Source: Chitinophagales bacterium
GTDB lineage: Bacteria > Bacteroidota > Bacteroidia > Chitinophagales > JADIYW01
DNA length: 64,000 bases
NCBI GenBank assembly: GCA_046329815.1
Contig: JAXLTY010000002.1
Location: forward strand, 1,198,750 to 1,262,749
Reading direction: 5' to 3'
This document shows, in pieces, positions 589-37,966 of this stretch. The position numbers and the translations under genes were made by a program. Numbering within the stretch: position 1 is the stretch's first letter; each line of letters begins with the position of its first letter. The notes under the pieces were generated by a model. It was not told the origin of the DNA, made no database searches, and saw nothing but the letters and a program-made list of their open reading frames with translations.

Positions 589-1260
589 ATGGAAATTCAT
601 TTTCTTAATTATTCATTAATAAAAATTCAAAAACATCATCTAGAATTGCTGAGAAACTGGCGCAATAATGAAGTGCGTGAATTTATGATTTATCAAGAGT
701 ATATTTCTGAAACCATGCAGCAAGAATGGTTTGACAGTATTAATAACCAAAACAATTTTTACTTTCTGATTTCAAAAAAAGAAATTCCTGTTGGTTTGAT
801 TGATATAAAAAATATAAACTGGAATGATAATACTGCGGAAACAGGCATCTACATTGCAAACCCTGAATCTCGCCTGAGTGATGTATCATCTATAGCAATT
901 GTAATGAGTGCTGCATTTATAGCTAAAATATTACATTTAAAATCAATTTACGGAAAAGTATTAAGCAGCAATAAACAGGCAATTGCATTTAACCTGGCTT
1001 CTGGCTTTAAGATTATTTCAAAAGAAGATAATATTGTTACGATGGCTATTGAAAGTATTGCTGTCGCTTTTTTAGAAATCATAAAACTGAAACAAAAACT
1101 TTGTGAACTACACAAAAATGAAACAAATACTACTATTGAATTACTAATACAATCAGAAACTCTAAAAGATGACAAAGCACTAAACTGGCTAATAGAAAAT
1201 AAAATAAAAAAACATTTTCCGGAGTTTCAAACAGACAAAAAGCTTTGCATACAATTATAG
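589..1260 (+). CDS. GNAT-family N-acetyltransferase (PseH/RimL-like)
   Basis: The N-terminal LRNWRNNEVREFM motif and the Q/GxG-like core are typical of sugar-nucleotide or RimL-type GNATs. It sits 18 nt after the GT2 gene. Confidence 0.5.
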   Translation: MEIHFLNYSLIKIQKHHLELLRNWRNNEVREFMIYQEYISETMQQEWFDSINNQNNFYFLISKKEIPVGLIDIKNINWNDNTAETGIYIANPESRLSDVSSIAIVMSAAFIAKILHLKSIYGKVLSSNKQAIAFNLASGFKIISKEDNIVTMAIESIAVAFLEIIKLKQKLCELHKNETNTTIELLIQSETLKDDKALNWLIENKIKKHFPEFQTDKKLCIQL

Positions 1261-2019
1261 CTTAATATTTAATTTCATTAAACAACGAAATAACAATTGA
1301 AACACGTTATAAAATATCTTAAAGAATAAGCGTAATACTGCATTTAATTTTTTAAAACCAAATAGTACCAACAAATAATTGATCAGCAAACCACTCAACA
1401 CTTTTGAGCAAACCTTATTTTTATGTTGAATGTTTTCTTCATGCAAAACATCAATAATCATTACCAGTCTGTCTTCATTACTATGATTATAGCCACCATG
1501 AACATGTGCGTCACAAAAGAGCAAGCATTTACCGGTTTCCCAATTTTTACTAATATTATTTACATTAAAAGCTATTTTAGTATTATCAGTTGCAGTGTAT
1601 AAACACAAATGCGTTCTGATGTGCGCATCGGTATCGCCTCTGTGTTTTACTATTTCACCACCTGCTTCCAACATACTGAAAGATGCAGAAACCAATCCAG
1701 GAATCTTATCTAAAATTTGTTTTGTGTTTGGAAAATGTTTTAAATTTTTTCGTGTAATATTCCATGTAATCAACGGCAGCGTTTTCCATTTACCGGTATT
1801 CTTTGCCTGTGCTTTATAAAAATAAGGTTGTAAATGATGCTGCTCATTAAATAGTTCAAATTCTTTCAAGATCTGCTCATAATTTTCTGGCAGCAATGCT
1901 GTCCAACTATAATTTGAAGCATCAAAGTATGCAGGAAACTTACCAGTATAAGATGTACTTACTTTATTAGCAAGAATTTCTTCAACATGAAACCAATTAT
2001 TTTCAGGCATTACTGACAT
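1255..2019 (-). CDS. Aspartyl/asparaginyl beta-hydroxylase family Fe(II)/2OG oxygenase (LpxO/OlsC-like), C-terminal membrane anchor
   Basis: Motifs FSMLEAGGEIVKHRGD..IRTHLCL and LFCDAHVHGGYN...RLVMIIDV match the AspH-family signature (S.L.PG..I.PH.G...R.HL.L ... FDDSF.H.V.N...R). The C-terminus has a hydrophobic tail. Confidence 0.75.
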   Translation of the reverse strand: MSVMPENNWFHVEEILANKVSTSYTGKFPAYFDASNYSWTALLPENYEQILKEFELFNEQHHLQPYFYKAQAKNTGKWKTLPLITWNITRKNLKHFPNTKQILDKIPGLVSASFSMLEAGGEIVKHRGDTDAHIRTHLCLYTATDNTKIAFNVNNISKNWETGKCLLFCDAHVHGGYNHSNEDRLVMIIDVLHEENIQHKNKVCSKVLSGLLINYLLVLFGFKKLNAVLRLFFKIFYNVFQLLFRCLMKLNIKL

Positions 2020-2109
2020 TCATTGAAATAGTTTAAATTGGCTATTTAATGACCAAAATACATTTTAAAATGTAAATTAGTGTAATAATTGCTCTGTAAA
2101 AAACAATAA

Positions 2110-3048
2110 ATGAAATTATTATTCAGGTTTATTGGCTACTTTTTTTTGCATATTTATGTATTTACATTATGTTCAGGCGCAATGTTGTCAATTCCTGTTA
2201 TGGCTTTTTTAATGAATGGATTTTGTGCTTTTATCAGAATTTTCATTGGCAAAAATAGTTCAAGCGCTGTATTTTTTTTATTGCCTTTTAACAACTATGA
2301 AGCGTGGAAAAAATATATTCTTATCATACAATCATTTATCAGAAACACTACTTTTTCAGAAACTTTTTGGATGCTGTATTATAAGTTCAGAGTATTAGAT
2401 CATCATCTTAACAGAGACTTACCATATTTTAAATTTCCTTCTGTAAAAAGTGATTCTATATTTTACGAGCCATCTGATTTTCCTGAATTAAATGAATTAA
2501 GCGATAAAAAAGAGCAAATATTAAAAGAATATTTAGCAGCAACAGATTTATTAAAATATTATGTCAATGAGGCAGGTATTCAACACAATGACTGGCAAAC
2601 TATTTTTCTGTATGGAAACGGTTTATTGAATGAAAAAGTAAAAAATAAATTTCCGGTTACACTGGAAATCATACATAAAATTTCAGGTATTGATTATTCC
2701 ATGATCTTATTTTCTGTTCTAAAACCTGGTGCGCACATACCTATACATACTGGTCCTTTCAATTCATTTTTAAGAGTGCATTTACCTTTAATCATACCAA
2801 AAGACGCAACAAAATGCAGTATAAATGTGGGCACAGAAACGAGAAACTGGAACAATGATGAATTACTCATTTTTGATGATAGCTTTGCTCATGAAGTAAC
2901 AAATGATACCAATGAAACACGTGTCATTTTAATGTTAGCTATTGAAAAACATCATACACCAAACACTGTAAAGCCGTTGATACGTCAATTTATCGCGCAT
3001 TTAAACAGCAGTCCGCCATTTGTGCAATGGATGAATCATAATACATAA
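2110..3048 (+). CDS. Aspartyl/asparaginyl beta-hydroxylase family Fe(II)/2OG oxygenase, N-terminal TM helices
   Basis: FSVLKPGAHIPIHTGPFNSFLRVHLPLIIP and LIFDDSFAHEVTNDTNETRVILMLAI give a near-canonical AspH signature. The N-terminal ~60 aa are strongly hydrophobic. Confidence 0.8.
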   Translation: MKLLFRFIGYFFLHIYVFTLCSGAMLSIPVMAFLMNGFCAFIRIFIGKNSSSAVFFLLPFNNYEAWKKYILIIQSFIRNTTFSETFWMLYYKFRVLDHHLNRDLPYFKFPSVKSDSIFYEPSDFPELNELSDKKEQILKEYLAATDLLKYYVNEAGIQHNDWQTIFLYGNGLLNEKVKNKFPVTLEIIHKISGIDYSMILFSVLKPGAHIPIHTGPFNSFLRVHLPLIIPKDATKCSINVGTETRNWNNDELLIFDDSFAHEVTNDTNETRVILMLAIEKHHTPNTVKPLIRQFIAHLNSSPPFVQWMNHNT

Positions 3049-3060
3049 TTTACATTTTAA

Positions 3061-3825
3061 ATGATAAACCACAATTCTATTCATACAAAGCCATTCATAA
3101 ATATTGGAAATCAACAATATGATGACAGAAAACCTGCGTTTTATGAAACTATAGAATATGGAAATCTTATAGAAACTTTAGAAAAGAATGTTGCTGTTTA
3201 TTTAACGGAATATAATAACTATATAGAACATCAAAAACAAGATCCTAAATTCTTTTTATTGTACAATGAAACCGGCTGGAATACAGTTATGTTGTATAGT
3301 TACGGATTGCGTTATCACAAAAATTGTATTCAATTTACCAACACGTTAAAAACGTTGAAACCATACAATAATATAGTTACTATCTACTTTAGTACACTTG
3401 AACCTGATACAAAATTAAGACCACATTTTGGCGATACCGATGCAACTTATCGTATTCATTTAGGATTAGATATTCCTGCAGGTTTGCCTGAATGTGGAAT
3501 TGAAGTGGGCAACATTCAGAAAGAATGGCAAAATGGCAAAACGATTATCTTTAATGATGCGCATTTTCATACAGCATGGAATTTAACAGACAAAAAAAGA
3601 ACTGTTCTGATTGTTGATATTATCAAACCTGAATTTACAGCAAAACAATGGTTCATCATTCCTAAAATTCTTGGCGCAATGGGTGTTGGAAGAGTATTAT
3701 TTCCATTAAAGCTAATGAATATTTTACCTGAGTTTGCGCTAAAAACACTTCATTTTTTAGCAACCATCGCATTTATGATTTTGTTGCCATTACAAAGAAT
3801 GTTAAAGTATTTCTATAAATACTAA
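3061..3825 (+). CDS. Aspartyl/asparaginyl beta-hydroxylase family Fe(II)/2OG oxygenase, C-terminal membrane anchor
   Basis: Carries FSTLEPDTKLRPHFGDTDATYRIHLGLDIP and IIFNDAHFHTAWNLTDKKRTVLIVDI, plus a hydrophobic C-terminal ~60 aa. Confidence 0.75.
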   Translation: MINHNSIHTKPFINIGNQQYDDRKPAFYETIEYGNLIETLEKNVAVYLTEYNNYIEHQKQDPKFFLLYNETGWNTVMLYSYGLRYHKNCIQFTNTLKTLKPYNNIVTIYFSTLEPDTKLRPHFGDTDATYRIHLGLDIPAGLPECGIEVGNIQKEWQNGKTIIFNDAHFHTAWNLTDKKRTVLIVDIIKPEFTAKQWFIIPKILGAMGVGRVLFPLKLMNILPEFALKTLHFLATIAFMILLPLQRMLKYFYKY

Positions 3826-4877
3826 TACTCAATAACGTCAAAAGTCTTTATTTTATTAATATCCAATAGCATACTTGCCCAGGAAAGTCCGACACCAAAA
3901 CCAGATAAAAGCAATTTATTTTTTCCGGAATTCAAGATAGATTTCATTTGAGAAACAATTGTAAGCGGAACAGATGCTGCGCCGGTGTTGCCATAATAAT
4001 ACATAGAATTTAAAAACTTATTGGGTTCTGTTTTTAATTGTTTTTGTATCGTCTCATTGATCATTTTATTTGCCTGATGTAAAATAAAATAATTTATTTC
4101 AGCTTTATCTATACCTGCAAATTCAATCGTTTCACGAATATTCTTTACTACTTCGCGCATTGAGAATTCAAAGATCTTCAAGCCATTGATATATGCCTGA
4201 TACCCTTTTCTTGAAATGCCATCTTCACCCGTTTTTTCTGTAATCATATCCAAATTCCAAGGTTCTCGAAAGCCGCCAGCAGGCATAATCAGATCATGAT
4301 AACCATTGCCATCACTATACATTGTTGAATAAATTGGTTCAGCATTTTTATCATACTCAATCAAAGTTGCTGTGCCTGCATCGCCAAGCAATGGAAAAAA
4401 AGTTTTATCTTTTGGTGATGCACTTAATGTGCAGGTATCGCCAGCCAAAAGTAATCCTTTTTTTACAGTACCACTTTCCATCAATGCTGTTAAAATAGTA
4501 ATACCGTAAATATAGCCGGAACAACCCAAAGGCACATCAAATGCTAAACATGTTTTAGGTAATTTTAATTTATGTTGCAAAACAGTAGAAGTGCATGGAT
4601 AAATATAATCGCGCGTTTGACATACAAAAACCAATGCATCTATTTCGTTTCTGTTGATGTTATTTTCGGTCAATAATTGATTGGCTGCTGCTTCGCATAA
4701 ATCGGCGGCTGTAGTACCTTCTGCAACGTGTCTTTTTTCATGAATACCAACAAATTCTATAAATTTCGATTTCTCAATGTCAGAGAAATAGTCGTAATCT
4801 TTTATGTAGGAAACAGACTTAGGAACAGCAGCGGTAATTCCTGTGATTTTTGAATTATAAATAATGCGTTTAGCCAT
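3822..4877 (-). CDS. 3-oxoacyl-ACP synthase III (FabH-like KAS III)
   Basis: The Cys-His-Asn triad contexts are present: PLGCSGYIYG, ILHQANKMI and GNTGAASVPL. The 351-aa length fits. Confidence 0.85.
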   Translation of the reverse strand: MAKRIIYNSKITGITAAVPKSVSYIKDYDYFSDIEKSKFIEFVGIHEKRHVAEGTTAADLCEAAANQLLTENNINRNEIDALVFVCQTRDYIYPCTSTVLQHKLKLPKTCLAFDVPLGCSGYIYGITILTALMESGTVKKGLLLAGDTCTLSASPKDKTFFPLLGDAGTATLIEYDKNAEPIYSTMYSDGNGYHDLIMPAGGFREPWNLDMITEKTGEDGISRKGYQAYINGLKIFEFSMREVVKNIRETIEFAGIDKAEINYFILHQANKMINETIQKQLKTEPNKFLNSMYYYGNTGAASVPLTIVSQMKSILNSGKNKLLLSGFGVGLSWASMLLDINKIKTFDVIEY

Positions 4878-5110
4878 TATTCATGTGGTTGAATATATTT
4901 ACTATAAAATTCACCGAATGTAAAATCGGCAAATAAATCTTCAACAATTAAATCAATATTATACTCTGCTTTAATAAAACCTAACAACATCACTGTATTC
5001 ATAGAATTCATTTGTATGACTTCTTTGAAATTTTTATCTGCAGTAATCGTGCCTGGTGGCACTTCTTCGAATTCTCTTTCGAATAATTGAATGAACTTTT
5101 GTAATGACAT
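4877..5110 (-). CDS. Acyl carrier protein-like
   Basis: A 77-aa acidic protein with a candidate phosphopantetheine Ser in QMNSMNTVMLL (a DSL-like position). Its stop overlaps the FabH start (TAATG). Confidence 0.55.
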   Translation of the reverse strand: MSLQKFIQLFEREFEEVPPGTITADKNFKEVIQMNSMNTVMLLGFIKAEYNIDLIVEDLFADFTFGEFYSKYIQPHE

Positions 5111-5114
5111 AATA

Positions 5115-6815
5115 TTAAATTATAGTGATTGCCTGATGGAATAACGGTTGATATTTGCTGACCAATATTTTTCGTTTCAGTTTCATAGTTGGTGTATATT
5201 CTTCGCTTTCAATTGTCCAGTTATCCAAGGTAAAAATAACTTTTTCTATTTTTTCAGAATCTAACATTTTAGCGTTATAGCTCTTTTGAATATACTGAAT
5301 AATATTCTCTTTATCTTCTGTTGTTATAACATCAGAAGTATTTGGACGAATTACAGCAAGCAAAGACATGTTTGCATCTTGCGTAATAAACATATTTTTT
5401 ATCAAATGTGAAGCACATAATTCCTGTTCTATTAATTCAGGATTTAAATACTTTCCATTCATCAATTTAAAAATAGTGCTGGCTCTTCCTTCAATATGCA
5501 AAAAGCCGTCTTCATCAATAAATCCTGTATCACCTGTATGATACCAGCCATCATCATCTAATAAAGCTTTCGTCAGTTTTCCCAATTTGTAATAACCTTT
5601 CATATTACTTTTACTCTTCATCCAAATCTCATCATCATTATTGATCTTTACTTCAGCATATGCTAACGGCAAACCAACTGTTCCGGTTTTATATTTAAAA
5701 TTTTCATGATTCACCGTATGTAACAATGCTTCTGTTGAACCATAACACTCAAACAATGGAATTTTTATAGACCAAAAAAATTGCACTAAATATTCCGGAA
5801 TCATAGCTGCGCCTGTAATGATTTGTTTAAAAGCACCACCTAATTCTTCATTCCACAATTCATAATACTTTTGGTGTTGTTGGTATGCTTCTGACGCAAA
5901 AAAATCTTCTTTTTTCTTATAATCAAAATGAGAAGTGTATTGAATAGCAGCAATAGCTTCTGTATTATTTTCCTGTATATATTTTTGAGTGAGTGCTTTA
6001 TAAAAACCTTCAATGATTAACGGCACACAAACAATCTGATTAGGTTTAACTTCTTTTACTTGTTGCGTTAACAGTGCACTGCTGTCTGCAAAATAGACAG
6101 TTACGCCTTGTTTTAAATAAAAATAGTAATGTAATCTTTCAAACGCATGAGAAATAGACAATACACTCAGCGCAATATCAGCTTCTTTCAAGTAATAATT
6201 ATTTGTCAGATGCTCAGCAAAAGCGCCAAAAGTGGTATGCGTATGAATTGCGCCTTTAGGATTGCCGCCAGTACCTGAAGTGTACAATATAGTTGCAACA
6301 TCATCCGGTTTTATTTGGTCTTTTCGTTCGTTAATTGCAATTTCATCTGATTCAGTAATCGAGGTTGGCAATATGCTATTCCATGATACAATATTTTCAC
6401 CTTCATCAAAGCAATAAATTCCTTTCATAAAAGTTAATTCTTTAAGATGAGGCAAAAGTAGTTTATATAAAATTCTATTACCACAAAAGAAATAATTGAG
6501 TTCTGTTTGTTTTAAAATATAGATGACATCATTTACACTATATGCCGGATGCAAGGAAACATGTATTGCACCAACCTGCAAAATACCAATGTCCAAAAAA
6601 TTCCATTCAGAACGATTGATAGAAATAGAGCCGATCATATCGCCTTTTGATATTCCTAAATCAATTAATGCCTTTGAAACAAGATTTGCTTTTGCTTTAT
6701 AATCCTGAAAGGTGGTCTTAATCCAGTTTCCTTTTTCACGATGTGCTAACGCGTAAGCATTTGGATTGGTAAAAACTTGTGCATCTAAATAATCAAAAAG
6801 GCGGTAGGAAAACAT
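5115..6815 (-). CDS. Acyl-AMP/acyl-CoA ligase (AMP-dependent synthetase, FadD-like)
   Basis: Shows the adenylation motifs YTSGTGGNPKGAIHTH and GDTGFIDEDGFLHIEGR. The likely start is Met19 (MFSYRLFDYL) at 6815. The ORF track's longest start is 6869. Confidence 0.85.
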   Translation of the reverse strand: MFSYRLFDYLDAQVFTNPNAYALAHREKGNWIKTTFQDYKAKANLVSKALIDLGISKGDMIGSISINRSEWNFLDIGILQVGAIHVSLHPAYSVNDVIYILKQTELNYFFCGNRILYKLLLPHLKELTFMKGIYCFDEGENIVSWNSILPTSITESDEIAINERKDQIKPDDVATILYTSGTGGNPKGAIHTHTTFGAFAEHLTNNYYLKEADIALSVLSISHAFERLHYYFYLKQGVTVYFADSSALLTQQVKEVKPNQIVCVPLIIEGFYKALTQKYIQENNTEAIAAIQYTSHFDYKKKEDFFASEAYQQHQKYYELWNEELGGAFKQIITGAAMIPEYLVQFFWSIKIPLFECYGSTEALLHTVNHENFKYKTGTVGLPLAYAEVKINNDDEIWMKSKSNMKGYYKLGKLTKALLDDDGWYHTGDTGFIDEDGFLHIEGRASTIFKLMNGKYLNPELIEQELCASHLIKNMFITQDANMSLLAVIRPNTSDVITTEDKENIIQYIQKSYNAKMLDSEKIEKVIFTLDNWTIESEEYTPTMKLKRKILVSKYQPLFHQAITII

Positions 6816-6883
6816 TTTTAAGCAGGTATTTAATTGTTTATGTAAATTTACACCAATATTCCTAACCAACTAAACAATTGCCT

Positions 6884-9607: not shown

Positions 9608-9629
9608 ATTTGGTAATGAAATTATTCAT

Positions 9630-10637: not shown

Positions 10638-10646
10638 CACAAAATA

Positions 10647-11861: not shown

Positions 11862-11863
11862 AA

Positions 11864-13578: not shown

Positions 13579-13618
13579 AATACATTAAATTTAATAAAAA
13601 AACAGAAAAAAATACTAC

Positions 13619-24866: not shown

Positions 24867-24903
24867 AATGCTGTAAGTGTTAATGATTAACACTTACAGC
24901 ATT
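24867..24903. terminator. Bidirectional terminator-like 17-bp perfect palindrome between convergent genes
   Basis: aatgctgtaagtgttaa-tga-ttaacacttacagcatt, flanked by A/T runs. The right arm overlaps the last codons of ORF 24880-26019. Confidence 0.55.
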
Positions 24904-26216: not shown

Positions 26217-26269
26217 AAAACGTATTGTAACTTAGAGTTACGCATGTATTAACATTTTAATGTATATTT

Positions 26270-29314: not shown

Positions 29315-29440
29315 AATTAATCCTATTCAAATATACATTATAATTCAGTGATACGGTTGTTTTAAGCGAATTAAACACTTTGCCGTTATTCAAAAACTAA
29401 GATATTTATTGTAAATTTATCCAAATTCGACCAGATAAAT

Positions 29441-30769
29441 ATGGATAAAAACAGCACTATTTCTGATTTTGAATCAAAAAGCTATTTGTTGCTGTTTTTT
29501 AGTATTTGTGTTTTCCCATTCGCCTATCTTGCACAATATAATTTGCCGCTTTCTGATGAATTTACAGCAATGTATCTAAGACCCAAAATAGGTTTTATTG
29601 CGTATCAGAAATATCTGCTGCATGCGTGGTCAGGAAGATACTTTGGTAATTTTTTAGAATTCATCTATCCGTTAAAAATCCAACCTGTTTTTTATATTTT
29701 ATCTGTATTTATTACGCTTTTTTTACTTTTTTTTTGCATTCGTCTTTTAGCACGAAAAATAATTTCAGATAGAGAAAATTCAACATTAACAGTATTCCTC
29801 TTTGTGATAATTTTAAATTTTAGTCCGTCTATTGGAGATTTGATTTATTATGTTCCTGCTATTATTATTTACACTGTTTCTTTACTTTTGTTTTTAGTTT
29901 ACATTTGGCTTTTTTTAGCTGAAATAAAGCCAGTTTACAAATTTTCAGTTTTCATTTTATTGAATATCTTATTACTTGGAACTTCCGAATTATTTATACC
30001 AATCATTGCGTTTACATCTGTTTTATTTTTGTTTAAATCCATTCAACAAAAATCAGGAATCGGCATTAGCAGTTTAAATCTAATGATTGTATTGTCTGTT
30101 ATTATTTTTTTAATTCATTCTTCAGGCAATAATAACCGATTTGATGAACAAGGAAATAAGTTTGACTGGGTTTTTGGCATTAATAATTGCATACTGGAGT
30201 TTTTATATTGGACAAAGAAATTCATTTTTGCGTTGCCTGTTTTGGCTTTAATGCTTTTGTTTCTAAAATCAAGAATTTTGCCTGACAGTTTTAATTCCAA
30301 ACTAAGTTTTAATGTCTTGTTATACTTTTTATTTATTTATTTACTGGCCTTTGCACCACTGTTTTTAATAAAACTAAGCATGTACAAAAGATTAGGCAAC
30401 ATCTTTTTATTTCTTTTTTTAATACTTTCAGTTGCAACATTATTAAAGTACCTGCCAAAGCTTAAAATAAATGCTATTTACCAAAGATTATTATTATTTT
30501 TGATTACAATAATTATATTGTTTTCAGGCAATATAAAAGCTGCTTACGAAGATATTTATTTTGGTTACACAAAAAATTATTCGGCTGCATTGATTGAAAG
30601 ATATGACATCCTGGAAAAAAATAAAAATAAAGAACATCTTGAATTGTCAAAAATACCAATTACACGATATATCAATAATATACAAGACGTAAACGATAAA
30701 CCGAGCAACGATTTAATATACGATATGTACAAAAGATACTATAATATTGACAGCATAAGCATCCGATAA
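29441..30769 (+). CDS. Polytopic inner-membrane protein (about 10-12 TM), candidate GT-C-like glycosyltransferase or polymerase
   Basis: Extremely hydrophobic, F/L/I-rich sequence with a ~80-aa soluble C-terminus. It lies in context with Und-P sugar GT2 genes. I recognise no diagnostic motif. Confidence 0.35.
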   Translation: MDKNSTISDFESKSYLLLFFSICVFPFAYLAQYNLPLSDEFTAMYLRPKIGFIAYQKYLLHAWSGRYFGNFLEFIYPLKIQPVFYILSVFITLFLLFFCIRLLARKIISDRENSTLTVFLFVIILNFSPSIGDLIYYVPAIIIYTVSLLLFLVYIWLFLAEIKPVYKFSVFILLNILLLGTSELFIPIIAFTSVLFLFKSIQQKSGIGISSLNLMIVLSVIIFLIHSSGNNNRFDEQGNKFDWVFGINNCILEFLYWTKKFIFALPVLALMLLFLKSRILPDSFNSKLSFNVLLYFLFIYLLAFAPLFLIKLSMYKRLGNIFLFLFLILSVATLLKYLPKLKINAIYQRLLLFLITIIILFSGNIKAAYEDIYFGYTKNYSAALIERYDILEKNKNKEHLELSKIPITRYINNIQDVNDKPSNDLIYDMYKRYYNIDSISIR

Positions 30770-30770
30770 T

Positions 30771-31178
30771 ATGAACAAAGATTTACCTCAACTTATTACC
30801 TACAACTCTATACAACCTTTTGAAGGAAAATCGATTACTGTCAATGAAAAAGAAGCATTGAATATCTTTCCTGTCAAACGTATTTATTGGATAAAATATT
30901 TTGCAGATGAGATTACATACAGTGAACATGCACATAAATCATTACGGCAAATCATTATAGCTATTGAAGGAAAAGTCGATATTCAGTTAAAAAGCATCGA
31001 TGAGGCAACGTATCATTTTACGCTGGATGACAGTTCGAAAGGTTTATATATTCCACCTATGTTCTGGAAAAAAATTGAATATATAAAGCCATGCAACCTG
31101 ATGTGCTTAGCATCTAAAGAATTTGATGAATATGATTACATTCGTAACTACGAAGACTTTAAAAATTTTCAAAAGTAA
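30771..31178 (+). CDS. FdtA/WxcM-like sugar 3,4-ketoisomerase (cupin)
   Basis: Carries VKRIYWI...HAHKSLRQIIIAIEGKV...GLYIPPMFW...DEYDYIR, characteristic of TDP-4-keto-6-deoxyhexose 3,4-isomerases. Confidence 0.7.
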   Translation: MNKDLPQLITYNSIQPFEGKSITVNEKEALNIFPVKRIYWIKYFADEITYSEHAHKSLRQIIIAIEGKVDIQLKSIDEATYHFTLDDSSKGLYIPPMFWKKIEYIKPCNLMCLASKEFDEYDYIRNYEDFKNFQK

Positions 31179-31183
31179 GCAGC

Positions 31184-32008
31184 ATGCGCTTAGCATTAGG
31201 ACAACTATTGGTAGAAGGTGGTGAACCTGAACGTAACTTCGAGCGCGCTGAAAAAATGATTCAGCAAGCTGCTGAACAAAAAGCAGATTTTATATTATTG
31301 CCTGAAACGATTGATTTTGCATGGACACATCCGTCTTCAGTAAATGAAGCACAAACCATTCCCGGAAATTTCAGCGATTTATTTTGTGATTTGGCAAAAA
31401 AATATGCTATTCATATTGGTGTTGGCCTGACAGAAAAAGTACAAACTCATCATTTTAATTCAGCTATTTTAATTAATGAAAAAGGTGAAATATATGGCAA
31501 GCATCACAAAATAAATTTATTAGAAGTTGAGTTTCCTTTTTACAAAATTGGTCAGAAGTTGGAAGTATTTGACACACCTTTTGGCAAGATCGGTTTAAAT
31601 ATTTGTGCTGATAACTATTATGATGCATTACATATCGGACACACATTAGCGCGAATGGGCGCACAAATTATTTTATCACCATCATCGTGGACGGTTGATT
31701 ATCACATTACAGAAAACGATGACCCTTATTACGACAAATGGTTCAAGCCGTTTCATACTTTGGCATCATATTATGATATTATCGTAGCGAGTACAACTAG
31801 CGTTGGTTATATTGTTGGCGGTCCTTATGAAGGCAAAAAAATGATCGGCTGTTCTTTGGTTGTTGGAAAAGATGGTGTCATTGCACAAGGTAAAAAAAAT
31901 GAATTTGCAGGTGATTTAATTATTGTTGATATTGATATACCTGTCAGAAATGAAAAAGGCACGCAAATAGGAAAAATGTTATCACAAAAAGGTTATAAAT
32001 TTGACTGA
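31184..32008 (+). CDS. Carbon-nitrogen hydrolase (nitrilase superfamily)
   Basis: The Glu-Lys-Cys triad contexts are present: LLPETIDF, KHHKINLL and IGLNICADNYY. Confidence 0.8.
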   Translation: MRLALGQLLVEGGEPERNFERAEKMIQQAAEQKADFILLPETIDFAWTHPSSVNEAQTIPGNFSDLFCDLAKKYAIHIGVGLTEKVQTHHFNSAILINEKGEIYGKHHKINLLEVEFPFYKIGQKLEVFDTPFGKIGLNICADNYYDALHIGHTLARMGAQIILSPSSWTVDYHITENDDPYYDKWFKPFHTLASYYDIIVASTTSVGYIVGGPYEGKKMIGCSLVVGKDGVIAQGKKNEFAGDLIIVDIDIPVRNEKGTQIGKMLSQKGYKFD

Positions 32009-32015
32009 ATTTTAC

Positions 32016-33191
32016 ATGCATCCAGCTCCATCAGATAATTTTACAGAATGTACAAGATGTGTACAAGACACAACCGTTCCCGGAATTGAATTTGATAAAA
32101 ATGGCGTTTGTAATTTTTGTCATGGTCATGATGAGTTGTGTAAAATTTTTCCAAATGAAGAACGCGGTCAAAAATTTCTTTCCAACCTTTTCTATAAAAT
32201 TAAAAAAGATGGAAAAGATAAACCGTATGATTGTATAGTTGGTATCAGTGGTGGCCGCGATAGCACTTATTTGTTATGGTGTTGTGTAAAATTATGGAAA
32301 CTTCGTCCTTTGGCAGTTCACTTCAATGATGGTTTCGACAATCCTGTTGCAGGCGAAAATATGCTGAAAGCTGTAGAAAAATTAGGTGTAAAATTAATCA
32401 CGATTACTTCTGACTGGCGCGAAGCAAAAGACCTGAAAATAACTTTTTTAAAAGCATCCACACCGGATTTAAATTTAGGAACTGATATTGGCATTGCTTC
32501 CAGCTTGTATTCAGTTGCGCACAAAGAAAACATCAAACATATCTTAATTGGTCAATCTTTCAGAACAGAAGGCATCAAACCGCTTTCCTGGGCATTTTTT
32601 GATGGTGATTATTTACGAAATGTTCAGCAAAAATTAGGAACCATTGCATTGCGAAAATGGCAGCCAAATGACGCAGGTTTTAATTTTGGTATTAAAGAAT
32701 TATTCTATTATTCAGTTATCAAAAATATCAAGACATACACGCCATTTTATTATTTTCCTTACATCCGAAAAGAAGGGCAAGCTATTATAGAAAAGGAATT
32801 GGATTGGGTTTATCCTGGTGCACATTACTTTGATGATTTGTATCACAGCTTAATAAAATATATTCATCGCGTAAAATTCAATATCGACATGAACATGAAC
32901 AGTGATTCAGGAATGGTGCGTTCTGGTCAGTTAGCAAGGCAAGTTGCATTGCAAAGAAAACATGGAATCTATGCGATTGAAGATCCAAAAGTCATTGACC
33001 TTTGTATTAAACGACTGGCTTTAACAAAAGAAGAATTTGATAGTTATATGCAACTGCCTGTTAAAACATTTCTTGATTACAAAACATCATATCCAATTAT
33101 ACGTTTGATGCGATTACCGATTTATATTTTAAGCCAATTGCATCTGATTCCTAAGATTACTTACTATAAATATTTTATATTTGGGAAATAA
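32016..33191 (+). CDS. N-acetyl sugar amidotransferase (PP-loop ATP pyrophosphatase, WbuX/PseA-like)
   Basis: Has an N-terminal Zn-ribbon (CTRCVQDTTVPGIEFDKNGVCNFC) and the PP-loop ISGGRDSTYL. ATG is at 32016; the track's TTG at 32001 overlaps the upstream stop. Confidence 0.8.
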   Translation: MHPAPSDNFTECTRCVQDTTVPGIEFDKNGVCNFCHGHDELCKIFPNEERGQKFLSNLFYKIKKDGKDKPYDCIVGISGGRDSTYLLWCCVKLWKLRPLAVHFNDGFDNPVAGENMLKAVEKLGVKLITITSDWREAKDLKITFLKASTPDLNLGTDIGIASSLYSVAHKENIKHILIGQSFRTEGIKPLSWAFFDGDYLRNVQQKLGTIALRKWQPNDAGFNFGIKELFYYSVIKNIKTYTPFYYFPYIRKEGQAIIEKELDWVYPGAHYFDDLYHSLIKYIHRVKFNIDMNMNSDSGMVRSGQLARQVALQRKHGIYAIEDPKVIDLCIKRLALTKEEFDSYMQLPVKTFLDYKTSYPIIRLMRLPIYILSQLHLIPKITYYKYFIFGK

Positions 33192-34819
33192 TGTACATAC
33201 TCGGAATTAACGGCGGATTTGGTGGCGGCTATCAGGATGGATGCGCATGCTTATATGCAGATGGAAAAATCATGGCTGCAGTTGAAGAAGAACGCTTAAA
33301 TAAAATAAAATTTTCTACCGGAATTTTTCCTTTGTTGTCGATAAAAGAAGTTTTATCGCTGGCGAATATTTCCATGCAAGATATCAGTATTGTTGCATTT
33401 CATGGCGTGACATGGCAAGGAAATATTGAAGAAGATATTCGTAATTTTTTGTTGCATCATTTTGGTTATTGTCCAACTATAAAACGTTTTCACCATCACA
33501 ACGCGCATGCAGCAAGTAGTTTTTATTTATCCGGTTTTGACGAAGCATTGGTTTTTACAATGGATAATTCCGGCGATGGAATTTCATCGCAAATTATGCT
33601 TGGAAAGAATGGCAAATTAGAATTAGTAAAAAACTGGGAACGACCAATAAGTTTTGGTGCTTTTTATTCTGCTATTACACAATTGGCAGGTTTTAATCGC
33701 GATGCCGATGAATATAAATTAATGGGCCTGGCTCCTTTCGGAAATCCTGACGCTTATGATTTTTCTGATTTTCTGTTTTATACAACAGATGGAAACTATG
33801 AACTGAATAAAAATTATATTTATCCTGTTGAACAAGGGAAATCGTTTCCGAATAAGCAAATTCCATTATACAGTGATGCTCTTTTGCAAAAACTGGAAAT
33901 TGAAAATTCCTGTGCAATCAGAAATACGCAAATTCAAAAAGATTTAGCAGCATCAGCACAAAAACAATTAGAAAAGACAGTTATTGAATGGATCAACTTC
34001 TGGATCAAAAAAACAGGCGTAAAAAATATTTGCCTTGCTGGAGGCGTTGCCATGAATTGTGTATTGAATCAAAAAATTGCTGAAAACACTGAAACAGAAC
34101 AATTATTTATTACACCATTTTCCGGCGATCAGGGTGTGAGTATCGGAAATGCTTTTCTTGCCGGAATTGAAAATAATATTGTACCAAACAACAAAAGTTT
34201 TGCTGCCTACTCAGGAAGATGTTATTCGGTTGAAGAAGTGGAAATCATTTTAGAACAAAATAAAATTTCATTCAGAAAAACAGACAATCATATTGACTTA
34301 GCTGCACGATATATTGCAGATGGAAAAATAATCGGCTGGTTTCAAGGTAACTCTGAAATTGGAGCTCGGGCACTTGGAAACCGCAGCATTTTAGCCAATC
34401 CGGCAATTAAAGGCATGAAAGATAAGATCAATAAATCTATAAAATTCAGAGCATCATTTCGTCCGTTTTGTCCAAGCGTTTTAGAAGAAGATTTTGCTGT
34501 TTATTTTGAATCAAAATTACCTGATTTACCGTATATGAATCGCACGGTAAACTGTAAAGAAATTACTCAAAAAGAGCTGACAGAAATTGTGCACATCGAT
34601 AAAACTGCGCGCATACAAACGGTTTCTTCTGAAAATAATGCTATCTTTCATCAATTATTGATACAACTAAAAAAGCATACTGGTCACGGAGTCGTATTAA
34701 ACACGAGTTTAAATATTCGTAACCAACCGATGGCTTATGATATAAATGATGCGCTGACTGCCTTATTTACAAGCGGTTTGGACGCTTTGTTTATTGAACA
34801 TATTTTGATTGAAAAATAA
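33191..34819 (+). CDS. Carbamoyltransferase (NodU/CmcH/TobZ family)
   Basis: Has the N-terminal ILGINGG...DGCACLYADGKIMAAVEEERLNKIK, which is ASKHA/Kae1-like. The C-terminal YrdC-like half contains GNRSILANP. Confidence 0.85.
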   Translation: MYILGINGGFGGGYQDGCACLYADGKIMAAVEEERLNKIKFSTGIFPLLSIKEVLSLANISMQDISIVAFHGVTWQGNIEEDIRNFLLHHFGYCPTIKRFHHHNAHAASSFYLSGFDEALVFTMDNSGDGISSQIMLGKNGKLELVKNWERPISFGAFYSAITQLAGFNRDADEYKLMGLAPFGNPDAYDFSDFLFYTTDGNYELNKNYIYPVEQGKSFPNKQIPLYSDALLQKLEIENSCAIRNTQIQKDLAASAQKQLEKTVIEWINFWIKKTGVKNICLAGGVAMNCVLNQKIAENTETEQLFITPFSGDQGVSIGNAFLAGIENNIVPNNKSFAAYSGRCYSVEEVEIILEQNKISFRKTDNHIDLAARYIADGKIIGWFQGNSEIGARALGNRSILANPAIKGMKDKINKSIKFRASFRPFCPSVLEEDFAVYFESKLPDLPYMNRTVNCKEITQKELTEIVHIDKTARIQTVSSENNAIFHQLLIQLKKHTGHGVVLNTSLNIRNQPMAYDINDALTALFTSGLDALFIEHILIEK

Positions 34820-35731
34820 ATGCCTGTTTTATCGATTGTCATACCATGTTATAATAGTGCGGAAAATATTGCCGACTTGCAAATTGCATTGGAAGCATTA
34901 GCCAAACAAATCAATAATTATTCTTTGGAAATTATTCTGGTAGATGATGGTTCTAAAGATGATACTTACAATAAATTAATTCAGTTTTCAGAAACAACTG
35001 ATTTAAAAATCATTATTGTAAAATTGACCGGAAATTTTGGTTCGTATAATACTTTCTTAGCCGGTTTGAGTTATGGCACCGGTGATGTCTATGCGCATAT
35101 GCATCCTGATATGCAAGATCCGCCTGAACATTTAGTAGAGATGCTAAATTATTATGAAAAAGGTATAAAGTTTGTAATTGGCCAGCGCGTTGAAAGAGAA
35201 GATAAAAACTTCAACCAGTTGTTTGCGCATTTTTATCATTGGCTGATAAAAAAAATTGGATTGACGCATATTCCTGAAGGTGGTTACGATCTGATTTTAT
35301 TTGACAAAGCATTGCGTAATCATGTTGTCAATATGAATGAAAAGAATGCCAATTTAGTGTATTTAATTTCATGGCTGCAATATCCGTTTGTTACGGTTCC
35401 AATTACACGCATCAGCAGAAAAAAAGGTAAATCACAATGGACATTCAGCAAAAAATCAAAGTTGCTATTTGATTCAATAGTCGCATTTTCTTACACACCA
35501 ATACGTTGGATGACTTATACATCTATGTTTGTGTTCATTGCATCTATAGTATTTTTTATTTACTTATTATTTTCTAACAAGCTATCTATCTATTTAAGTT
35601 TGATTTTATTTTTTGGCAACCTGATATTGATATTTATGAGCATTGTTGGCGAATATTTATGGCGCACATTAGATGCTGCAAGAAACCGTCCGAATTTCGT
35701 TGTTGATAAGGTTCAATCTAATAAATCTTAA
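34820..35731 (+). CDS. Glycosyltransferase family 2, polyprenyl-phosphate sugar transferase type (ArnC/GtrB-like)
   Basis: Shows LSIVIPCYNSAENI, VDDGSKDDT and a DxD-like PDMQDPPE. The tail reads RISRKKGKSQWTF and is followed by two C-terminal TM helices. Confidence 0.8.
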   Translation: MPVLSIVIPCYNSAENIADLQIALEALAKQINNYSLEIILVDDGSKDDTYNKLIQFSETTDLKIIIVKLTGNFGSYNTFLAGLSYGTGDVYAHMHPDMQDPPEHLVEMLNYYEKGIKFVIGQRVEREDKNFNQLFAHFYHWLIKKIGLTHIPEGGYDLILFDKALRNHVVNMNEKNANLVYLISWLQYPFVTVPITRISRKKGKSQWTFSKKSKLLFDSIVAFSYTPIRWMTYTSMFVFIASIVFFIYLLFSNKLSIYLSLILFFGNLILIFMSIVGEYLWRTLDAARNRPNFVVDKVQSNKS

Positions 35732-36938
35732 TACTATTTTCTTTCAAAGAAGTTGCTTTCAGATTTTCAGCAACAATTTCTGCCATCATATTATAACCTT
35801 TTGGCGTATGATGATGATCGTTATAGTAATAATATTCGTAAATCTTTTTACTATTATCAGGAATGATTTTTTTATAATCTGGCGTTAAATCCACAAATGG
35901 CATTTTACTATTACTTAAGCTATCTTTCAATGCATCTGAAAAAACATAATGATATCTTGTCGTATTTATTTCCGGAAGCAATGGTAAATAAACAACTAAA
36001 AAATGTGTATTATTTTTCAATAAATCCTGTTGGAAAGCATTAAGATGCTGCATCATTTTATTGATTTCTACAGTTCGTTTTTTTGCATTACTTTTAGATG
36101 TATTTTGCAGTATCATATTTTTCATCAACAAACCATTATCCAATATTCTATAAATATGGCTGATAGCTAAGAAATATTCTTTAATTGGCATTTTCCCTTG
36201 ATTGGAAGCAATTTCAAACTCAGCAATATCACAAATATTAACTTCCATAATCACTAAGTCTGCATTCCATTTTTTCAAAACATTTTTGTATAATGTAGTT
36301 TCAAACATAGGATTGCTGCCGCATTTTCCACCATTTATAATTGTTACTTTTTTTACAGTATTATCCAGTTTCGCTTGTAATAACTTTGGGAAAGTAGAAT
36401 CTTCTCCGGCGCCAAAACCTTCCATAAATGAATCGCCTAAAGTAACGATCCTGAATTCGGTACTATCTTTTTTTAAAGTCGGCAACTCGCCTCTTAATCC
36501 AATTGAATTATATTTTACAGGTATTTTAAAATCCATTGTTTCATAAAAAAATTCCTGATATGGCTTTGCACCATTTTCCCAATTATTCACCGGTGGCTTT
36601 AAACCAATCAGCGTAAAAACCTTAACCTGCTTGTCACGCATATATTCTGAAAAATAAACACCGCGTTCATTTTCCATATAATTATTCATTTTCTTAAATA
36701 CAAATGTGAACGCAAATTCTGACAAAACAAGCAAAGAAAGTAAGATCATTAAATTGTACTTAATAATCGTAGTGATTTTTTTATTCTTAATAAATCGGAG
36801 AAAAAATACTGCAACAAAATAAACAAGCAAATAAAATAAAACTGTAGTAGTAAAAAATGAAATACCGTAAGAATACAATATTAAGAAGTGTATTGTGTAA
36901 ATTAAGACAAGCACCAATGTATATAATTTATTAAACAT
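35718..36938 (-). CDS. Membrane-anchored SGNH/GDSL hydrolase or acyltransferase
   Basis: Has N-terminal TM helices and blocks IVTLGDSFMEGFG (I), NGGKCGSNP (II) and NDHHHTPKGY (V). Met24 at 36938 is preferred because it removes the 61-nt overlap with the upstream gene. Confidence 0.55.
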   Translation of the reverse strand: MFNKLYTLVLVLIYTIHFLILYSYGISFFTTTVLFYLLVYFVAVFFLRFIKNKKITTIIKYNLMILLSLLVLSEFAFTFVFKKMNNYMENERGVYFSEYMRDKQVKVFTLIGLKPPVNNWENGAKPYQEFFYETMDFKIPVKYNSIGLRGELPTLKKDSTEFRIVTLGDSFMEGFGAGEDSTFPKLLQAKLDNTVKKVTIINGGKCGSNPMFETTLYKNVLKKWNADLVIMEVNICDIAEFEIASNQGKMPIKEYFLAISHIYRILDNGLLMKNMILQNTSKSNAKKRTVEINKMMQHLNAFQQDLLKNNTHFLVVYLPLLPEINTTRYHYVFSDALKDSLSNSKMPFVDLTPDYKKIIPDNSKKIYEYYYYNDHHHTPKGYNMMAEIVAENLKATSLKENSIKIY

Positions 36939-36946
36939 ATAAACAC

Positions 36947-37966
36947 TTAAATACCAGAAACAAATAACTTCAATACTTCTACGCAAACAGAAGTAGTAAT
37001 AACACAATTAACATCATACGCTTGCCAGATATCATTCTTGTCATCGTGAAATTGCCAAATAACCTGGTTTGAATTCCAACTTCCATTTTTTGAAAGATTA
37101 GCAACTATAAAACTAATTCCTTTCTGAATAGCATCACTATTCTTTTTATCTAAGCATAGCGTTTTCAAAGCCAATGCTGTTGAATATACATCTTCATTTT
37201 TACTCCAGGAACCATTACTATTTTGTTCCTGCTTAACATATGACATGCCTTTTTCATAACAGGTATGTAATAGTTTTTTTTTATGCAGCAAACTCATAAA
37301 CTGAAATATAGAATAATACTGATCAGGATAAAAAAAAGAACTCCAACTTCCGTCTTGTTGCTGCGATGCTTTAATTAACTGTTCACTAATTAAGTGTTCA
37401 TTATTACTATCTAATAAAACGTGATAAATATTTGCATTTACTTCAGGATGTATTTGTAAATTATTTTGAGAAGAAGGAACTGTCTCCATTTTCTTTCCTT
37501 TCATATCAGTTATAAATGTAACAAATGCAGGAAAATAGACATCATTATATCTGCATATCCGCTTGTAATTCGTTAGCACATCATTAGATCGATATATATC
37601 CAGAGCTCTCAATGTTCTTAAAGCAAAAGCCGTATCATCAGCATCTACAAAAAACGGATTATTACCGGTTTCGTTATAGTAACCTCTTGGTGAGTAGCCC
37701 CATTGTCCGTTATATTCTTCTGAAAGAATTCTCATCAAAATGATAGTGCGCTCCATTTCATTCAAATCATCTGATAGCGCATCAACAATATGAAAAGCTG
37801 AAAATAAATGTCCTTTATCATGTGAAAATTTAGGATTGCCATCTTTTCCAAGACACGAAAGACCATAATTACCTGACAATAATTGTTTGCGAATAAAATC
37901 TGTTCCTGATCTGATCGCACTTAAAATATTTTCTTTTTCCGTATCGCTCATCATTTGGTTAAACAC
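36947..37966 (-). CDS. Prenyltransferase/squalene-cyclase-repeat (alpha/alpha toroid) protein with a DxDDTA motif
   Basis: Shows repeated QW-like motifs (NGQWGYSP, DGSWSSFF, NGSWSKNE, NGSWNSNQ) and FFVDADDTAFALRTL. Confidence 0.5.
   Translation of the reverse strand: MFNQMMSDTEKENILSAIRSGTDFIRKQLLSGNYGLSCLGKDGNPKFSHDKGHLFSAFHIVDALSDDLNEMERTIILMRILSEEYNGQWGYSPRGYYNETGNNPFFVDADDTAFALRTLRALDIYRSNDVLTNYKRICRYNDVYFPAFVTFITDMKGKKMETVPSSQNNLQIHPEVNANIYHVLLDSNNEHLISEQLIKASQQQDGSWSSFFYPDQYYSIFQFMSLLHKKKLLHTCYEKGMSYVKQEQNSNGSWSKNEDVYSTALALKTLCLDKKNSDAIQKGISFIVANLSKNGSWNSNQVIWQFHDDKNDIWQAYDVNCVITTSVCVEVLKLFVSGI

Follow-up and report, generated by a model that had tools for sequence, protein, structure and literature searches.

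A hypervariable locus of Chitinophagales bacteria that probably tailors a heavily decorated envelope glycan by oxygenase and radical chemistry

A stretch of 64,000 nucleotides from a Chitinophagales bacterium (contig JAXLTY010000002.1, positions 1,198,750 to 1,262,749; hereafter the window) carries in its left part, up to position 37,966, an island in which nine Fe(II)/2-oxoglutarate (Fe/2OG) oxygenases, four radical S-adenosylmethionine (rSAM) enzymes and one corrinoid reductase of the RdhA family lie beside surface-sugar genes, as assigned with Pfam and NCBIfam. The best explanation is that this region forms the greater part of a single coherent locus, recurrent and hypervariable in Chitinophagales-type Bacteroidota and made of four gene modules that shuffle between genomes: an acyl module (A), an oxygenase module (O), a radical module (R) and a sugar module (S). 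The locus probably builds and tailors a surface glycan or glycolipid that is richly modified and of a type not yet described. Literature searches found no publication on this gene combination, in agreement with the initial annotation of the stretch, which had not recognised it as a described pathway.

Related loci, denoted here by L numbers, were collected by exact-sequence look-ups and homolog searches and mapped by tblastn and blastp; a scan of GTDB representative genomes returned only four loci. Six independent metagenomic loci carry the same families in shuffled order, with protein identities of 30-87%; the combination is therefore more than chance. In these other genomes, too, the oxygenase, rSAM and RdhA genes occur together with the sugar genes; the initial annotation had made its glycan proposal depend on such co-conservation, and the proposal passes this check. 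One 122-kb contig (L008 and L096) holds three PhyH-family oxygenase genes, a DegT gene, a methyltransferase gene, four rSAM genes with an N-terminal twitch module, an SGNH gene, three B12-binding rSAM (B12-rSAM) genes and a homolog of the 442-aa membrane protein of the window (memb442), together with a gene for a WbpB-like GFO/IDH/MocA protein, the CN-hydrolase, WbuX and carbamoyltransferase genes in conserved order (69-87% identity), four glycosyltransferase family 2 (GT2) genes, two AspH-family oxygenase genes, a hexapeptide acyltransferase gene and a DprE1/DprE2-like fusion. L011 combines AspH, PhyH, B12-rSAM, methyltransferase, WelO5-like, SGNH, two twitch-rSAM, memb442-like, 347-aa SGNH-like, a further B12-rSAM, FdtA and carbamoyltransferase genes; in L100 and L101, nine PhyH and four twitch-rSAM genes accompany a WelO5-like gene, a GT2 gene, the trio of RdhA, AMP-ligase and TonB-dependent receptor (TBDR) genes, and separate DprE1- and DprE2-like genes; and L098 is syntenic with positions 1-17 kb of the window (58-83% identity), including RdhA, TBDR and AMP-ligase. 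Relatives of module O occur in L009, L011, L012, L098 and L101, and the module R set of twitch rSAM, 347-aa SGNH-like protein, B12-rSAM and 442-aa membrane protein recurs in L008/L096, L011 and L097. Module S is the most conserved block (69-87% identity), its gene order being identical in L099 and, apart from the GT2 gene, in L096. Sugar-nucleotide genes added in related loci encode DegT, WbpB-like GFO/IDH/MocA and hexapeptide acyltransferase proteins. Within L011, a gene for an IS1595-family transposase lies mid-locus (6204-6983), between the oxygenase and radical modules, which fits module shuffling.

The chromosomal site is shared as well. In L099, an isocitrate lyase gene 94% identical to that of the window directly abuts module S, the order being isocitrate lyase, GT2, carbamoyltransferase, WbuX, CN-hydrolase, FdtA, TBDR, AMP-ligase, RdhA, AspH, GNAT, GT2 and DegT, plus four polytopic proteins. 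The site thus houses a shorter locus of other composition in a close relative, and such variation in content is how hypervariable surface loci behave. Modules that vary at a fixed site suggest that selection, for instance by phage, favours diversity of the cell surface. Accretion of unrelated units in a chromosomal 'junkyard' (a glycan cassette, a catabolic unit of RdhA, AMP-ligase and TBDR, a twitch-rSAM/SGNH unit and an oxygenase array) would fit the 13 strand blocks of the island, the transposase inside L011, the insertion of a non-conserved gene for a type IX secretion system (T9SS) protein, and the occurrence of modules apart from each other, twitch rSAM with SGNH in L004 and L013 and RdhA with AMP-ligase in an alphaproteobacterium. 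We nevertheless consider it very unlikely, as at least five independent loci combine the same four modules, if in changed order, as genes are tightly packed, and as the rare memb442 family is confined to this locus type.

Open reading frames (ORFs) of at least 100 aa across the entire window were compared with Pfam, and key ORFs also with NCBIfam (Table 1). The initial annotation had described a 37-kb AT-rich island at 1255-37966. AT-richness was confirmed as a modest one (GC content of 0.319 in the island versus 0.359 in the right flank at 42-64 kb); the extent was not, as the left window edge cuts the island and the locus reaches at least 6 kb further left, where a methyltransferase, a 551-aa polytopic protein, an acyl carrier protein (ACP), a second beta-ketoacyl-ACP synthase III (KASIII) and a ketoreductase are encoded. 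Only nine intergenic gaps in the island exceed 40 bp, the largest measuring 250 bp. Markers of a mobile island were sought, and neither a tRNA gene nor an integrase or insertion sequence (IS) element was found in the window; Rfam families gave no match in it. The gene inventory of the initial annotation was largely recovered: three AspH and five PhyH oxygenases, two B12-binding rSAM enzymes (PF02310/PF04055) and two with an N-terminal Cys module (NF033640), the RdhA-like protein (above the TIGR02486 cut-off), the SAM methyltransferase, the FabH/ACP/AMP-ligase triad, the FdtA-like, WbuX-type amidotransferase and NodU-type carbamoyltransferase genes, the GNAT (which lies outside the range given), a polytopic membrane protein with 11 transmembrane (TM) segments, and three TM-anchored SGNH-like proteins, two by Pfam and the third by motifs read directly. 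Its statement that domains of nonribosomal peptide synthetases (NRPS) and polyketide synthases (PKS) are missing also agrees with the Pfam scan of the window. Two entries had to be revised, since the ninth oxygenase, listed as P4H-like, belongs to the WelO5 family (PF22814) and has the H-A-D motif of hydroxylase-type members, and only one of the two GT2 genes said to bracket the region lies within it, the other being cut by the window edge. The list had lacked the TBDR, the medium-chain dehydrogenase/reductase (MDR) protein, the CN-hydrolase and the SQHop_cyclase_C-like protein.

Table 1. Features of the island and its right flank (positions are those of the window)
Feature	Position	Strand	Evidence
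ArnC/GtrB-type GT2, 3' part	50-571	+	NCBIfam ArnC, E 1.5e-11, profile positions 156-310
GNAT N-acyltransferase	589-1260	+	PF13420 and PF13302
AspH-family Fe/2OG oxygenase 1	1255-2019	-	PF05118
AspH-family Fe/2OG oxygenase 2	2110-3048	+	PF05118
AspH-family Fe/2OG oxygenase 3	3061-3825	+	PF05118
KASIII (FabH), 77-aa ACP, acyl-AMP ligase	3822-6869	-	Pfam and NCBIfam
TBDR with CarboxypepD_reg N-terminus	6878-9607	+	Pfam
MDR-family reductase, PIG3/enoyl-reductase-like	9630-10637	+	Pfam; TIGR02824 144 bits, below cut-off
RdhA-family corrinoid/2x[4Fe-4S] reductase, cytoplasmic	10647-11861	+	TIGR02486 186.2 bits (cut-off 160.35)
PhyH1	11864-12721	-	Pfam
PhyH2	12718-13578	-	Pfam
PhyH3	13619-14506	-	Pfam
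PhyH4	14513-15415	-	Pfam
WelO5-family hydroxylase	15612-16490	+	PF22814 144 bits
PhyH5	16500-17285	+	Pfam
Class I SAM methyltransferase	17282-18091	+	Pfam; weak CMAS-like match
N-terminal-twitch rSAM 1	18088-19698	-	NF033640 190.1 bits (cut-off 170)
N-terminal-twitch rSAM 2	19775-21028	+	NF033640 337 bits (cut-off 170)
TM-anchored SGNH-like protein, 347 aa	21042-22085	+	GGSTS and DDCH motifs by direct reading; no Pfam match
T9SS cargo protein, 842 aa, Peptidase_S74 chaperone domain, Por_Secre_tail	22326-24854	+	Pfam
TM-anchored GDSL/SGNH protein	24880-26019	-	PF00657 and PF13472
B12-binding rSAM 1	26270-27832	+	PF02310 and PF04055
B12-binding rSAM 2	27833-29314	-	PF02310 and PF04055
11-TM membrane protein (memb442), 442 aa, rare family	29441-30769	+	No Pfam, NCBIfam or PDB match
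Sugar module: FdtA-like cupin, CN-hydrolase (31184-32008), WbuX, NodU-type carbamoyltransferase, ArnC/PgfS-like GT2 (34820-35731)	30771-35731	+	Pfam and NCBIfam
Multi-TM SGNH/AlgX-like protein	35718-37007	-	PF16822 and PF13472
SQHop_cyclase_C-like alpha/alpha-toroid protein	36947-37966	-	PF13243 32 bits
Isocitrate lyase (right of island)	42918-44201		

Within module S, WbuX aligned over its full length (TIGR03573, 205.7 bits versus a cut-off of 203.2), and the GT2 aligned end to end with PgfS (residues 4-298, 150 bits) and ArnC (residues 4-302, 117 bits). It scored below the equivalog cut-offs of both and is thus a relative rather than an ortholog; it carries two C-terminal TM segments. The alignment and the TM helices of this GT2, together with the membrane anchors of the AspH enzymes, support tailoring of an envelope glycan or glycolipid linked to polyprenyl phosphate, the reading that we favour with moderate confidence. 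It is further supported by the DprE1/DprE2-like genes of two related loci, by the sugar-nucleotide neighbours of distant twitch-rSAM arrays, by matches of the twitch rSAM enzymes to MoaA and viperin, and by a weak match of PhyH2 to a carbohydrate-cluster oxygenase family, all described below.

Module A consists of a GT2, a GNAT, three membrane-anchored AspH enzymes, KASIII, ACP, an acyl-AMP ligase, a TBDR, an enoyl-reductase-type MDR protein and RdhA. The GT2 at its left end, of which the window holds the 3' part, has three TM-like segments; its gene, seen full-length on L093-L095, encodes 304 aa and starts beyond the window edge. Orthologs in L098 include the GNAT (62% identical and likewise adjoining GT2 and AspH), the MDR protein (58%) and the TBDR (82%, in equivalent position), and the TBDR also adjoins AMP-ligase and RdhA in L099 and L100. 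An NSM serine motif was read directly in the 77-aa carrier, the L098 ortholog of which gives a weak PP-binding match. All three AspH proteins scored 111-134 bits against PF05118 and have an HxG two-His motif and a hydrophobic anchor; against OlsC (107 bits, equivalog cut-off 450) and LpxO (76 bits, cut-off 500) they stayed below threshold, so that only membership of the AspH superfamily is reached.

The 404-aa RdhA has PceA as its best solved relative (E 1e-50) and contains two Fe-S motifs, CDICSKCADACP and CGICIRVCP. No twin-arginine translocation (TAT) motif is present in its N-terminus, METPYSKEGKYY, and no small RdhB-type anchor gene lies adjacent. The assignment is one of family score and motifs. 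The closest RdhA homologs (71-73% identity) sit inside the same locus type and always near AMP-ligase and TBDR, and RdhA is therefore taken to belong to the locus. Cytoplasmic reductive dehalogenases such as NpRdhA share with it the RdhA core, the two Fe-S motifs and the lack of TAT signal and RdhB, but NpRdhA has 704 aa and the present protein lies in a biosynthetic-looking locus, always beside an acyl-AMP ligase. On a Rhodospirillaceae-type contig (L102:8001-13772), a 61% identical RdhA is directly followed by two AMP-binding ligases, with a GNAT nearby; the pairing of RdhA and acyl-AMP ligase therefore spans phyla and predates the glycan locus. A B12 riboswitch upstream of the TBDR, which would have pointed to corrinoid uptake, was sought and discarded as a candidate: Rfam gave no match in the window, and the divergent intergenic region, of at most ~70 bp, is too short.

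The strict conservation of the TBDR beside AMP-ligase and RdhA in L098, L099 and L100 bears on whether the locus yields not a surface polymer but a small molecule that diffuses or is secreted, for example a metallophore-like compound or an oxidised glycolipid with acyl groups, with the TBDR importing the product or a precursor acid. AMP-ligase, ACP and KASIII next to many hydroxylases follow natural-product logic, polymerisation and export genes were not found, and the set of PhyH paralogs is reminiscent of orthosomycin pathways, which use sets of PhyH-type oxygenases. Such a product is nonetheless unlikely, given that the Pfam scan detected no NRPS, PKS, NRPS-independent siderophore synthetase, efflux pump or resistance gene, that the GT2 is of the membrane-bound polyprenyl-phosphate type, that polytopic proteins, TM-anchored SGNH proteins and DprE1/2-like genes indicate membrane-linked intermediates, and that surface-antigen loci typically show such variation in content at a single site of the chromosome.

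Module O consists of five PhyH-family enzymes, one WelO5-family hydroxylase and one methyltransferase, orthologs of the last being 44-45% identical in L008 and L011. PhyH2 has H-Q-N where its paralogs have the HxD iron-binding motif, while the distal His and Arg are retained; the same H-Q-N is found in orthologs that are 77-81% identical (L009:2860-3720; L098:8307-9170), and in two loci the PhyH2-type gene lies one gene away from RdhA. PhyH2 also gave a weak match to the 'sporadic carbohydrate cluster 2OG-Fe(II) oxygenase' family. The WelO5-family protein and its four relatives all carry HxD/E and are therefore of the hydroxylase type; identity as a WelO5-type halogenase was ruled out by its H-A-D motif, as opposed to H-V-G in WelO5.

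Module R consists of the two N-terminal-twitch rSAM enzymes, the two B12-rSAM enzymes, the TM-anchored SGNH proteins and the 11-TM membrane protein. The CxxxCxxC motif is present in all four rSAM genes, as CNLKCRIC and CNLECVMC in the twitch pair, both members of which exceed the cut-off of NF033640 ('twitch domain-containing radical SAM protein'). In the N-terminal module, C27, C45, C91 and C94 are invariant among 36 sequences. An AlphaFold2 (AF2) model of the twitch rSAM reached a pLDDT of 91 and had no close PDB neighbour; Foldseek returned only generic rSAM-core matches, with a TM-score of ~0.37 that does not discriminate. After NF033640, the best NCBIfam and PADLOC matches include the nucleotide-using MoaA and viperin, with several other rSAM families scoring similarly. 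A role as prokaryotic viperin in defence was rejected, the similarity being confined to the core (NF038283, 42.6 bits versus 180; PADLOC pVip, 50.6 bits; PDC-M51A, weak). Orthologs of the 347-aa SGNH-like protein (46-58% identical) adjoin twitch-rSAM and B12-rSAM genes in L011 and L097, and relatives of the SGNH/AlgX-like protein accompany twitch-rSAM arrays in L004, L005, L013, L011 and L097. The second B12-rSAM has 74-84% identical orthologs in L008, L011 and L097. BchE and HpnJ are the best named relatives of the B12-rSAM pair, far below cut-off: the two proteins scored 127 and 142 bits against HpnJ (cut-off 578) and 67 and 80 bits against HpnR (cut-off 650), so that neither hopanoid equivalog was reached.

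These relatives raise the question of a membrane lipid as the main target, i.e. lipid A, an ornithine or other aminolipid, or a long acyl chain, which oxygenases, B12-rSAM enzymes and methyltransferase would hydroxylate and C-methylate. We regard this as distinctly unlikely. The AspH enzymes are membrane-anchored and nearest to OlsC and LpxO, the name PhyH denotes a fatty-acyl hydroxylase, HpnJ, HpnR and a 'lipid biosynthesis B12/rSAM' family are among the best B12-rSAM relatives, CMAS-like methyltransferases are present in the window and related loci, a set of KASIII, ACP and enoyl- and ketoreductases is present, and a fatty-acid desaturase gene adjoins L009. Yet all of the NCBIfam scores concerned are far under the family cut-offs, the sugar module is the block with the highest conservation, sugar-nucleotide enzymes accompany distant twitch-rSAM arrays, and no lipid A or aminolipid synthase was found in the locus.

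The membrane protein memb442 belongs to a family with only five cluster representatives, including the window's own, in a protein database of 5.8 billion sequences clustered at 90%, all of them in this locus type; it has an invariant acidic motif, LSDEF, after TM1. A second polytopic family of ~550 aa recurs in related loci, up to four in a row, gives no Pfam match and likewise has an acidic motif after TM1. A role as GT-C-like transferase is possible for the 11-TM protein.

The combination of B12-rSAM, rSAM, Fe/2OG and methyltransferase genes had led the initial annotation to offer proteusin-like peptide modification as an alternative, with a ribosomally synthesised and post-translationally modified peptide (RiPP) encoded elsewhere, or the T9SS protein, as the substrate. 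These enzyme classes are indeed those of polytheonamide-type tailoring, the top Foldseek matches of the twitch rSAM are the peptide maturases CteB, SkfB, anSME and SuiB, and distant twitch-rSAM arrays come with a conserved gene for a basic peptide of 33-36 aa. We searched for a precursor by clustering small ORFs across 92 sequences and by tblastx and blastn on the intergenic gaps of the island, and found no small ORF or coding signal in a gap that is common to the window and close loci, in line with the initial annotation, which had seen no precursor peptide; the 33-36-aa peptide is also absent here. Both B12-rSAM enzymes fell about threefold short of the RiPP family TIGR03975 (98.7 and 91.5 bits versus 281.85), the Foldseek matches cover only the generic core, and leader peptidase, RiPP recognition element and transporter were not found. 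A RiPP system would moreover leave the co-conserved sugar-nucleotide genes unexplained, and it is highly improbable in our view. The T9SS protein, which contains two tandem 101-aa repeats (23325-23930) that are 90% identical and lie upstream of the Peptidase_S74 domain, fares no better as a substrate: it has no relative in any related locus and contains no D(S/T)(A/I/L/V/M/T), the Bacteroidota O-glycosylation sequon. It is probably an inserted passenger gene that is not part of the system.

Returning to the envelope glycan or glycolipid, the gene content is compatible with the following scheme. It builds on what the data show, namely the family assignments, the co-occurrence of the modules and the variable content at a shared chromosomal site; from there we infer all substrates, the sequence of steps, the acceptor and a GT-C role for the membrane proteins. 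The AMP-ligase would activate a carboxylic acid and load it onto ACP for extension or reduction. In module S, the PP-loop amidotransferase WbuX may add an acetamidino or amide group to a sugar, with ammonia supplied by the CN-hydrolase, and the NodU-type enzyme would act as O-carbamoyltransferase. The GNAT would then move the acyl group to the amino sugar made by module S and its partners, giving an amino, acetamidino or carbamoyl sugar with a custom N-acyl chain, which the GT2 would put on polyprenyl phosphate. Cytoplasmic oxygenases and rSAM enzymes could hydroxylate, methylate or rearrange the sugar, the acyl chain or both, before the polytopic membrane proteins pass the product to an envelope acceptor and periplasmic SGNH proteins add or remove O-acyl groups.

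Several observations weigh against this assignment. The initial annotation had proposed dedicated tailoring of a surface glycan or glycolipid through undecaprenyl-phosphate-linked sugars; co-conservation, GT2 type and variable site speak for it, while the expected machinery was not seen. Positions 1-48 kb contain no initiating phosphoglycosyltransferase, Wzx, Wzy, Wzz, Wza or GtrA-type flippase, as judged by a scan of ORFs of at least 100 aa for Bac_transf, Glycos_transf_4, Polysacc_synt, Wzy_C, Wzz and Poly_export in a locus that continues leftward. With regard to a small 4-TM flippase (GtrA, ArnE/F), no free-standing ORF in the size range of 100-140 aa is left unassigned in the island, and Pfam gave no match to GtrA or EamA. 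RmlA/RmlB or aminotransferase genes are missing from the window itself. The polytopic proteins show no sequence match in Pfam, NCBIfam or PDB and no detectable similarity to GT-C families or to each other (hhalign probability of 4.6% between the two families), and the AF2 model of a polytopic protein (pLDDT 51) is unusable. A TBDR among biosynthetic genes fits uptake or metallophore systems better, the pair of RdhA and AMP-ligase occurs in Alphaproteobacteria without glycan genes, and arrays of twitch rSAM and SGNH occur without any sugar gene (L004, L013). The 13 strand blocks leave a single regulon unproven, and all of the evidence is computational and comes from uncultured organisms.

Comparison with known systems places the locus next to several of them. 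As in the Gtr, Arn and Pgf systems (GtrABC, ArnC-ArnT, PgfS-PgfM of S. mutans), it has a membrane GT2 of the PgfS/ArnC type, polytopic proteins and sugar-nucleotide tailoring enzymes; unlike them, it lacks a GtrA or ArnE/F flippase, its polytopic proteins are not recognisable as GT-C, and it is about ten times larger, with oxygenase, rSAM and RdhA modules that are unknown in those systems. O-antigen and capsule loci (WbuX/WbpG, the Wbp pathway, the rfbKLMNO tetronate arm of V. cholerae O1) share WbuX with the window, DegT, WbpB-like, hexapeptide acyltransferase and FdtA genes with related loci, and variation at a fixed chromosomal site; ACP and acyl-AMP ligase would here yield an N-acyl substituent. 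They differ in that no initiating transferase, Wzx, Wzy, Wzz or export gene was seen here in positions 1-48 kb, so that the island does not qualify as a classical cluster, in that the CN-hydrolase replaces WbuY/WbuZ for ammonia supply, and in the nine Fe/2OG, four rSAM and one RdhA enzymes. Genes with FAD_binding_4 and short-chain-dehydrogenase domains, fused in L096 (5583-7586) and separate in L100 (17593-19797), have the architecture of DprE1/DprE2, the lipid-linked sugar 2'-epimerases of known systems, and stand beside GT2 and polytopic proteins as in lipid-linked arabinan systems (DprE1/DprE2 with GT-C; mycobacterial arabinan, arabinosylation of pilin by TfpW in P. aeruginosa). This likeness is one of domain architecture only; the window has no DprE1/2-like gene, and no phosphoribosyltransferase was identified. 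Proteusin clusters of the polytheonamide type resemble the island in the enzyme set named above and differ by their precursor, leader peptidase and transporter, the rSAM thresholds being unmet and sugar genes co-conserved here.

If the envelope reading holds, a widespread uncultured Bacteroidota lineage would employ in its surface-glycan loci enzymes hitherto linked with antibiotics, RiPPs and organohalide respiration, namely arrays of Fe/2OG oxygenases, rSAM enzymes of the B12 and twitch types and an RdhA, and the chemistry known from bacterial envelope glycans would be widened. The N_Twi_rSAM family, uncharacterised and thousands of members strong, many of them encoded on viral contigs, would be placed in a functional context for the first time, and a large, highly conserved clade of cytoplasmic RdhA would seem to serve biosynthesis instead of catabolism. 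A more specific version, which we put forward tentatively and as the less probable outcome, is an undescribed route in which sugars linked to nucleoside diphosphate or polyprenyl phosphate, and their N-acyl chain, are remodelled by radical and oxygenase chemistry, with the twitch rSAM, the RdhA-ligase pairing and the conserved H-Q-N of PhyH2 as three parts that would be new. The N-terminal-twitch rSAM enzymes would then be radical enzymes of a new class that tailors sugars and also occurs in large viruses, and the RdhA-type B12 reductase would have an acyl-AMP ligase as its obligate partner. The H-Q-N of PhyH2, without a metal-binding carboxylate, leaves open cryptic halogenation followed by reductive dehalogenation, or another B12-dependent reductive step, in biosynthesis.

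The twitch-rSAM family extends well beyond this locus. An alignment-guided metagenome scan yielded 80 twitch-rSAM loci, nearly all of them (about 78 aquatic metagenome loci) with tandem arrays of 3-9 paralogs, whose annotatable neighbours include carbamoyltransferase (27 loci), FkbM methyltransferase (17), DegT (15) and NDP-sugar epimerase/dehydratase (15) genes; many other proteins among the arrays give no Pfam match. IMG/VR contains 192 relatives on predicted viral contigs of up to 525 kb, and a search of cultured phages returned only relatives with 22-25% identity, in KVP40-like Vibrio phages. The Chitinophagales genomes L004, L005 and L013 have twitch-rSAM arrays with SGNH-like proteins only; module R can therefore act on a pre-existing cell component. 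Genes of the defence-island type adjoin stand-alone arrays, namely a WYL/WCX regulator gene in L004 (6485-7483) and genes for an AAA_15/AAA_21 ATPase and a DUF1016 protein in L013 (2835-4501). The gene for the basic peptide of 33-36 aa was found once per locus in 48 distant twitch-rSAM loci, near the array (L017:2839-2943, L049:11959-12072, L041:15440-15568), with the consensus ..W[IL]K..I..KIK.EI.YRK[RK]LKEL[KR]K[KR]DPFIYK, and is absent from the window and close Chitinophagales loci. The peptide may serve as a precursor, as a partner or as a membrane helix.

At the right end of the island, the SQHop_cyclase_C-like protein has no relative in related loci, and its membership of the locus is doubtful. 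Between the island and the isocitrate lyase gene, positions 38604-42119 encode a 1171-aa protein of unusual architecture (VIT, CarboxypepD_reg, TBDR Plug, TPR and a DUF2135-like region), which is absent from the equivalent place in L099. More glycan-type genes lie outside the island: a gene for an FkbM-family methyltransferase, together with one for a 142-aa protein of no assigned function, separates isocitrate lyase and malate synthase (44250-45480), and a glycosyltransferase of family GT1 is encoded after malate synthase (47188-48324). The right flank at 48-64 kb is housekeeping DNA (PNPase, a sigma-70 factor, Rpe and a GH3 enzyme). Isocitrate lyase and malate synthase of the window group with proteins of Chitinophagales metagenome-assembled genomes in clusters at 90% identity. 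The isocitrate lyase cluster also holds a protein deposited as 'Rotaria sp. Silwood2', a rotifer, which probably represents bacterial contamination of the eukaryotic assembly.

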